Assembly (NCBI RefSeq): GCF_056746865.1
Contig: NZ_CM163382.1
Direction: 5' to 3' (one strand)
Length of the DNA: 64,000 nucleotides
Of the stretch, positions 30,001 to 31,885 are shown one piece after another (the first letter of the stretch is position 1; the number at the start of each line of letters is the position of its first letter). Made by a program: the position numbers.

Positions 30001-31885
30001 TTGCCAAGTAACAGGTCGCGCACGCCGCCGCCAACCAGCCAGGCTTCGTATCCCGCTTTATTGAGCCTGTACATTACCTTCAGGGCATTTTCACTGATAT
30101 CTTTGCGGGAAATAGCATGCTGCTCACGCGGGATCACCGTCACCTGTGGACGGGCGACTGCCTGTTCAGCCTCGCTTTCCTCGCGGCTTAGCACCTTGCG
30201 GCAAAAATTAGCGACTCGGGTAAAAATAGTACACCTCGGTAGTGTCAAACATCATTCAGGACAAAAAAATAGCGGCTAATCATAGCTCAGCATGACGCAT
30301 TTGAGAATGTTGAATTTACAATTGCCGACTCAGGCACTGCGGTGAGCCGCCAGTTTTTGACGGCTGACTGAAGGATTTGCTCGACGCTGAAATCCTGCCA
30401 GTGTGTTTCTACCTGCTGACCCAGAAAATGAAGTGCCGCGATTAACACCGGGCGTGGATCGCCTTTCGGCAACGCAGGCGCATGATTCTGCTTGGAAAGT
30501 TTAGCGCCTTGTGGATTAAGCGCCAGCGGTAAATGGATGTAATCTGGCACTTTCCAGCCAAAAAGCTGGTACAGCGAGATTTGCCGCACTGTCGGTTCGA
30601 TCAAATCTGCCCCCCGGACAATTTCGCTCACGCCCTGGAAGTGATCATCCACCACCACCGCCAGGTTATAGGCAAACAAACCATCACGGCGATGAATAAT
30701 AAAATCTTCCCGTGCCAGTTTTTCGTCGGCGTGAATAATGCCTCGCAGCAGGTCAGTAAACTGGGTGACCGGATGCTGCTGGCGGATACGTACTGCGGCG
30801 TTGTCTGGTCCATGATGCAATTCCCGGCAATGGCCGTCGTAAATACCGCCAATGCTTTGAATACGCGCACGCGTGCAGGTGCAGTAATAACTTAATCCTT
30901 GCTCATGTAACCAGGCGAGTGCTTCGCGATAGGCGTGGTGACGTTGCGATTGCCAGAGAACATCGCCGTCCCAGTGCAGGCCGTAATGTTCCAGCTGGCG
31001 CAGGATAGTATCTGCGGCACCGGGAACTTCACGAGGCGGGTCGATATCTTCAATGCGTACCAGCCAGCGACCGTGCCGGGCGCGAGCCTGTAAATAGCTG
31101 CCAAGCGCGGCAATCAGAGAGCCAAAATGAAGCTCGCCGGAAGGAGAGGGGGCAAAGCGGCCAATATAGTGTGTGTCTGTCATCTCGTTGAACAAAAAAT
31201 AAGGCGGGAGCATTTCCCGCCTGTGGTAAACGTGATGGAACGGCTGTAATTAGCCAGCCATCTGTTTTTCGCGAATTTCAGCCAGCGTTTTGCAGTCGAT
31301 GCACAGATCGGCTGTCGGGCGCGCTTCCAGACGGCGAATACCAATTTCAACACCGCAGGATTCGCAGTAGCCGAAATCTTCGTCTTCCACTTTTTTCAGC
31401 GTTTTCTCGATCTTTTTGATCAGCTTACGCTCGCGATCGCGGTTACGCAGTTCGAGGCTGAACTCTTCTTCCTGGGCTGCACGGTCTACCGGGTCCGGGA
31501 AGTTGGCTGCTTCATCCTGCATATGTGTAACGGTGCGATCGACTTCATCCCTGAGTTGATTACGCCATGCTTCCAGAATACGACGGAAGTGCGCCAGCTG
31601 GGCTTCATTCATATACTCTTCGCCCGGCTTCTCCTGATATGGTTCCACCCCAGCGATGGCGAGAATACTCAGGGACGATGTTTTACGGTTTTGCCCTTCT
31701 TGCATGTTGCTTCTCCTTAACACGCACTATCGATCCCCATGTTCGGGGGAAAAATGAGGCCGCTATAAATAGCAGATGCTTTTCCGGATAGCAATTATCT
31801 AAACGTAACACTTGACAACTGTGTGAGGAAAAGCGTATTTGCGCACGCGACCAGAATGTAAATTAACCAGTTACTTACTCTACTA

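Follow-up and report, generated by a model that had tools for sequence, protein, structure and literature searches.

The window analysed here, a stretch of 64,000 nucleotides from contig NZ_CM163382.1 (NCBI RefSeq assembly GCF_056746865.1), carries on its minus strand the gene for poly(A) polymerase I (PAP I), pcnB, which occupies positions 28830..30227 and consists of 465 codons plus a TGA stop. The region belongs to the E. coli core genome and has the gene order dksA-gluQ-pcnB-folK, a block whose neighbours are a fimbrial operon and sfsA/thpR/hrpB. Many E. coli chromosomes, including that of strain 118UI, share the 1.6 kb around pcnB with 100% identity, and of 5426 complete genomes 5424 carry the region. 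The RefSeq records of the identical strain and of K-12 confirmed the orthologous position, with gluQ upstream and folK overlapping downstream, and gluQ (PF00749) also lies upstream of pcnB in Aeromonas, Vibrio and other contigs. The identity of the gene product rests on profile, Pfam and PDB matches. PcnB scored 995.9 bits against the NCBIfam equivalog NF008634.1 (cut-off 702) and 522.3 bits against TIGR01942 (cut-off 305.65), and three Pfam domains were found, all far over their cut-offs: the PolyA_pol head (PF01743, residues 62-193), the RNA/SrmB-binding domain PolyA_pol_RNAbd (PF12627, 220-280) and the arginine-rich C-terminus PolyA_pol_arg_C (PF12626, 338-457). Poly(A) polymerase structures 3AQM, 3AQL and 3AQK were matched with an E-value of about 1e-283. 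These structures are silent on the N-terminus and were set aside as evidence for it, since the crystallized constructs begin only with residue 28 in the numbering of the 465-aa form. Compared with K-12, the PcnB encoded in the window differs at 2 of 465 residues (N264K and S451T).

Both neighbours of pcnB deserve a remark on their own starts. The pcnB stop (TGA) and the folK start (ATG) share the four nucleotides ATGA at 28830..28833 on the minus strand, and the same 4-nt overlap is present in RefSeq; such a stop/start overlap is the usual arrangement for translational coupling. The aligned first codon of folK is not Met in 30 of 69 related loci, so that either the start codon (e.g. GTG) or the overlap differs there. 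For gluQ the annotated start differs between RefSeq records (31183-31213, minus strand), with a protein of 308 aa in K-12 (ATG at 31213) and one of 298 aa in 118UI (ATG at 31183). The downstream ATG (31183) is Met in 70 of the 70 related loci that align from that residue.

Read on the minus strand, the pcnB coding sequence opens with ATT at 30225..30227 (A30227, T30226, T30225), the AUU initiation codon of the mRNA, and continues with TTT ACC CGA GTC GCT AAT TTT TGC CGC AAG, which encodes PcnB residues 2-11. The preliminary description had aligned the PcnB N-terminus with this codon, and the placement proved correct to the base in three ways. The RefSeq/PGAP coding sequence of the 100%-identical strain 118UI (L001, 1674..3071) corresponds to 30227..28830 of the window; K-12 pcnB (b0143, 157729..159126) is annotated with 465 aa and matches the start region of the window base for base; and the first position of the NCBIfam PcnB equivalog profile falls on the ATT codon, which is residue 8 of the longer open reading frame described below. 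The first PcnB residue is fMet, delivered by the initiator tRNA, although the codon reads ATT.

Above the ATT, the in-frame codons are, 5' to 3', TGA, TGT, TTG, ACA CTA CCG AGG TGT ACT. The TGA at 30252..30254 closes the frame, as seen both in the sequence and in a mechanical ORF listing, and the TTG at 30246..30248 is the sole ATG, GTG or TTG between that stop and the ATT. A start at this TTG would add seven residues (MTLPRCT), and the ORF listing gives the frame in exactly this form (28830..30248, minus strand, 472 aa, TTG start). The earlier statement that upstream there is no canonical candidate but the TTG at 30248, with its 7-residue extension, was thus borne out by the minus-strand read and by the listing. 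Downstream of the ATT, the first canonical in-frame codon is GTG at codon 12 (30192..30194), whose use as a start would remove the invariant residues that follow the ATT, and an in-frame ATG is found at codon 52 (30072..30074). With this configuration pcnB is an annotation trap, in that gene callers limited to ATG, GTG and TTG extend or truncate PcnB; public protein sets do contain extended or shifted PcnB N-termini. One of the papers cited below (PMC3561954) is itself inconsistent on this point, giving the pcnB start as UUG in the introduction but as AUU in the discussion, which could mislead annotators.

To place the start region in a comparative frame, we used a set of 80 loci from 80 Enterobacteriaceae species, kept from 452 relatives and showing 87-99% protein identity, with the window as the 81st sequence. 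The codon aligned to the pcnB start was ATT in 80/80 of the other species, and the Shine-Dalgarno sequence GAGGTG, which is complementary to the 3' end of 16S rRNA and lies at 30232..30237 in the window, was found exactly 4 nt before it in 81/81 sequences. The spacer between the two (TACT, 30228..30231) is constant in length but not in its bases, since offsets -4, -3, -2 and -1 vary in 40, 3, 12 and 28 of the 81 sequences, respectively. Conservation of the coding type was confined to the region downstream of the ATT, where codons 2-40 (offsets +3 to +119) showed 17, 16 and 33 variable columns out of 39 at codon positions 1, 2 and 3, whereas the sequence upstream of the Shine-Dalgarno varies freely and contains indels. 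The closest in-frame stop above the ATT lies 5 to 59 codons away in the relatives, with a mode of 9, and no in-frame ATG, GTG or TTG at all occurs from the upstream stop to the ATT in 43 of the 81 sequences. A TTG at -7 codons is present in only 27 of the 81, and the frame is broken among species by 1-nt indels that lie ahead of the Shine-Dalgarno, in the stretch from the TTG position to GAGGTG. Within E. coli the picture is nearly uniform: the 68-nt start region is identical in 5415 of 5424 genomes, a 31-nt core comprising the Shine-Dalgarno, the ATT and codons 2-5 is exact in 5420 of the 5424 genomes carrying the region, and a query in which the ATT had been replaced by ATG found no perfect match among the same 5424 genomes.

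At greater evolutionary distance the same arrangement was encountered in Pantoea (GAGGTG-TCCC-ATT), in Aeromonas veronii (GAGGTG-TACC-ATT) and in contig L088 (GAGGTG-TCAT-ATT). Contig L085 has AAGGAG, then 7 nt, then ATT. The more distant gammaproteobacterial contig L084 (601-660) retains GAGGTG and has ATC at the aligned start; pcnB of a Methylobacter MAG (L089, 601-640) is annotated from ATA; and Vibrio pcnB (L086, 450-610) begins with a plain ATG and has a different N-terminus that lacks the FCRK motif. Judged by these alignments, a non-canonical pcnB start is widespread, but in view of the ATC, ATA and ATG cases it is not universal, and the codon itself can differ. The starts of the distant relatives agree with the remark in PMC3561954, where Binns & Masters are cited, that PAP I homologues in many Proteobacteria may begin at AUU.

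The conserved Shine-Dalgarno is also strong when its pairing energy is considered. The 20 nt above the ATT form a duplex with the 16S rRNA 3' end of -7.2 kcal/mol, which falls in the top 2.3% of all 20-mers of the window, whereas PMC3561954 terms this ribosome binding site 'poor'. The corresponding values were +0.4 kcal/mol above the TTG at 30248 (no better than 87% of random 20-mers), +0.5 kcal/mol above the GTG of codon 12, and -3.9 kcal/mol above the ATG of codon 52, where only a weak, closely spaced AAGG is present. The leader in which the Shine-Dalgarno is embedded folds worse than its shuffled versions: for a 121-nt segment we obtained z = +1.33, with 188 of 200 shuffles at least as stable, and for the 84 nt that run from the presumed transcription start to the end of codon 12 z = +1.73, with 195 of 200. 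A search of Rfam over 29800-30600 returned no match at E<=1. We also considered an out-of-frame mini-ORF that begins at the GTG within the Shine-Dalgarno (GTG TAC TAT TTT TAC CCG AGT CGC TAA). It was rejected, because its codons 2-3 lie in the variable spacer; in L044 and L078 the spacer reads TAAC, which places a stop at codon 2 of the mini-ORF.

Upstream of the leader, a sigma-70-like promoter (TTCTCA-17-TATGAT, 30279..30307, minus strand) overlaps the gluQ stop and is the only promoter-like site in 30000-30600. It is probably the published promoter pB, which PMC2939334 describes as the major sigma-70 promoter upstream of the pcnB ATT. The TATGAT together with a GC-rich TAGCCGC is kept in Pantoea, Aeromonas and contig L088 (this promoter-like element being noted in loci L083, L088 and L090); Salmonella, Raoultella and Citrobacter have unrelated sequence in its place. 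The idea of a universal pcnB promoter was dropped for this reason. In L088 the public gene call starts pcnB at an ATG inside the TATGAT, which is an evident miscall.

We then asked which other readings of the locus these data would allow. One of them holds that the main product, or a substantial part of it, starts downstream of the ATT, either at the GTG of codon 12 (30194) or at the ATG of codon 52 (30074) on transcripts from the internal sigma-S promoter pS1, so that a truncated PAP I would be made beside or instead of the AUU-initiated form. Several observations speak in its favour. The GTG of codon 12 is kept in 81/81 sequences; according to PMC2939334, pS1 lies downstream of the pcnB ATT and is active with sigma-S, and the same source mentions a putative Shine-Dalgarno plus AUG and two bands in anti-PAP I western blots, so that a second isoform is possible; and a short run of suppressed synonymous variation, at codons 41-44, lies just upstream of the ATG of codon 52. 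On the other hand, the GTG lacks a Shine-Dalgarno and the ATG has only the weak AAGG described above. Moreover, PcnB residues 2-11 are invariant in the 81 species, and as far as Aeromonas the protein sequence is kept although synonymous changes occur in its codons; these residues must therefore be translated, which argues that neither downstream codon is the main start. The authors of PMC2939334 also point out that pS1 needs special conditions and that a truncated PAP I is unproven. Taking both sides together, we regard a main or substantial downstream start as unlikely. A minor truncated PAP I from pS1 and the ATG of codon 52, as proposed in PMC2939334, is a possible candidate, and this ATG is probably the '+1(b)' start put forward by Liu & Parkinson 1989. 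The run at codons 41-44 (CGC AAA GAT ATC, 30096-30107, minus strand) is the second-longest near-invariant synonymous run in pcnB and is situated about 25 nt above the ATG; it may overlap pS1 and the '+1(b)' start of PMC2939334.

A second reading accepts the AUU start but assigns the low level of PAP I mainly to something other than the codon, namely mRNA structure over the Shine-Dalgarno, a repressor or rare codons, with the ATT as a tolerated accident. It can draw on a weak hairpin between GAGGUG and UACCCG (codons 2-4) that appears in both the minimum-energy and the centroid folds and would hide the Shine-Dalgarno, on the invariance of the rare CGA at codon 4, and on the additional limits listed in PMC3561954 (a poor ribosome binding site and internal Shine-Dalgarno-like pause sites). 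However, the open fold of the leader contradicts a throttle based on structure, and the hairpin itself was rejected as a conserved element, since 188/200 and 195/200 shuffles are more structured than the leader, and Aeromonas, L088 and L084 have lost the pairing partner. An accidental ATT, which a single T-to-G change would turn into ATG, would not have persisted unchanged across 81 species and 5420 of 5424 E. coli genomes, and PMC2939334 and PMC3561954 ascribe the limitation of PAP I to the AUU. We consider this second reading highly improbable.

The remaining alternative, in which the canonical TTG at 30248-30246 is the main start of a 472-residue PcnB and the ATT an ordinary internal isoleucine codon, is very unlikely: although this TTG is the only ATG, GTG or TTG in the open frame, mechanical callers do pick upstream starts (P0014, P0066 and P0041, with extensions ending in ...RC(T/P)IF...) and the introduction of PMC3561954 names UUG, the codon is without Shine-Dalgarno complementarity in the 20 nt upstream, is not conserved and is cut off by frame-breaking indels in relatives, the extension has no 'conserved residues' apart from R-C, which is simply what the Shine-Dalgarno AGG-TGY encodes when translated in frame, and both RefSeq and the NCBIfam profile begin PcnB at the ATT. 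Minor initiation at the TTG of E. coli pcnB may nevertheless occur.

Initiation at the AUU thus stands as the preferred reading, and the codons that directly follow it showed a pattern of their own. In the 81 sequences the nucleotides from codon 2 to the second base of codon 10 (TTT to TGC CG, 30199..30224, minus strand) form an invariant block. Including the ATT (codons 1-9, 30199-30227 with the two bases of codon 10), synonymous variation across these Enterobacteriaceae amounts to 0.007, as compared with a gene median of 0.29, and is the lowest of 300 windows; a run of 9 near-invariant codons was obtained in 0 of 20000 permutations. Even the rare Arg codon CGA at position 4 is almost invariant across the 81 sequences. 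The first 9 codons of the neighbouring genes at the same loci show normal variation, with values of 0.28 (folK) and 0.32 (gluQ), each based on only 4 informative codons. The block matched no Rfam family, and no conserved hairpin was found that would account for the pattern. In more distant relatives the start block does show synonymous changes (GTC/GTA, GCT/GCA/GCC and AAT/AAC), and TTTTGCCG stays fixed; it is kept also in Pantoea, in Aeromonas and in the more distant contigs L084, L085 and L088.

This conservation of synonymous sites in codons 1-9 may be new. A tentative interpretation, to which we attach rather less than even weight, is that the ATT is part of a larger fixed cis-element (GAGGTG-N4-ATT together with the frozen bases up to TGC CG) that extends from the Shine-Dalgarno to +28 and acts at the RNA level, possibly as an undescribed element. 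AUU initiation might require it as an enhancer or standby site; alternatively, a regulator such as Hfq, S1 or an sRNA may bind there, or a signal at the DNA level may overlap the region. If true, such an element would tune PAP I synthesis beyond the known effect of the start codon. The known mechanism itself is left unchanged by our results, and the extreme conservation of synonymous sites in codons 1-9 is the only possible addition to it.

As regards that mechanism, both the AUU start of pcnB and its throttle role are already published, and the start is annotated in RefSeq. The preliminary description had called AUU initiation a translational throttle on poly(A) polymerase, which matches Binns & Masters 2002 (Mol Microbiol 44:1287), who concluded that the AUU restricts the synthesis of PAP I, as cited in PMC2939334 and PMC3561954; AUU-limited pcnB is also cited in 10.1101/063800, PMC5499595, PMC4245954 and PMC9410913. 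According to the citing papers, Binns & Masters found that an ATT-to-ATG change raises PAP I several-fold. A cell contains about 30-50 PAP I molecules and does not survive PAP I overexpression (PMC3561954), AUU initiation in reporters reaches roughly 1-2% of that of AUG (10.1101/063800), and IF3 discriminates specifically against AUU mRNAs (PMC5499595). On ribosome profiling of the pcnB start site (retapamulin; infC and ribosome profiling), the literature searched offered citations only and no E. coli data. The mapping of the PcnB N-terminus, the limitation of expression by AUU and the discrimination by IF3 are taken from this literature, to which the present analysis contributes the anatomy of the locus, its conservation and its annotation.

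We are therefore highly confident that the window contains chromosomal E. coli pcnB, translated from the AUU at 30227-30225 with its output kept low, the functional part of this statement coming from the literature and from the comparative pattern. A plausible course of events is as follows. Transcription of pcnB probably starts from the TTCTCA-17-TATGAT promoter, which would put the 5' end of the mRNA about 45 nt before the ATT. The strong and invariant GAGGUG, 4 nt above the AUU, would position the 30S subunit in an unusually unstructured leader, after which the initiator fMet-tRNA would pair with the AUU, leaving the third position mismatched. IF3 would discard most of these non-canonical 30S complexes, so that only a small fraction of binding events would yield protein and PAP I, which is toxic in excess, would be held at tens of molecules per cell. 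The combination of a strong Shine-Dalgarno with an open leader would, we infer, make a poor codon usable at a low but reproducible rate, and PAP I output would be expected to follow IF3 fidelity passively. The need for such a limit can be seen from what the enzyme does: the poly(A) tails added by PAP I mark bacterial RNAs for decay and set the copy number of ColE1-type plasmids, and excess PAP I polyadenylates mature tRNAs and kills the cell (PMC3561954). Because excess PAP I is lethal, a weak start codon built into the gene is a simple safety device.

Finally, we compared the locus with known systems. K-12 pcnB (b0143) is the same gene, with the same synteny, the same annotated start, an identical start region and 2 of 465 residues different; nothing of substance separates the two, the window representing another E. 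coli strain that is 100% identical to 118UI and others over 1.6 kb. Outside pcnB, the rare ATT start of ebpA in Enterococcus faecalis attenuates protein expression in a similar manner, as reported in PMC4447247, although there the protein is an unrelated one (a pilus tip) and the host is Gram-positive. The closest parallel within E. coli is infC, which encodes IF3 and is absent from the window: no AUU starts other than those of infC and pcnB are confirmed in this organism (10.1101/063800; PMC5499595; PMC4245954; PMC9410913), and in infC, as presumably in pcnB, the AUU limits expression through the discrimination of IF3 against this codon (PMC5499595). Since the infC product is IF3 itself, the AUU of infC closes an autoregulatory loop, whereas in pcnB it acts as a constitutive limiter that would only passively follow IF3 activity. 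To our knowledge, pcnB is subject to no feedback of this kind or any other.
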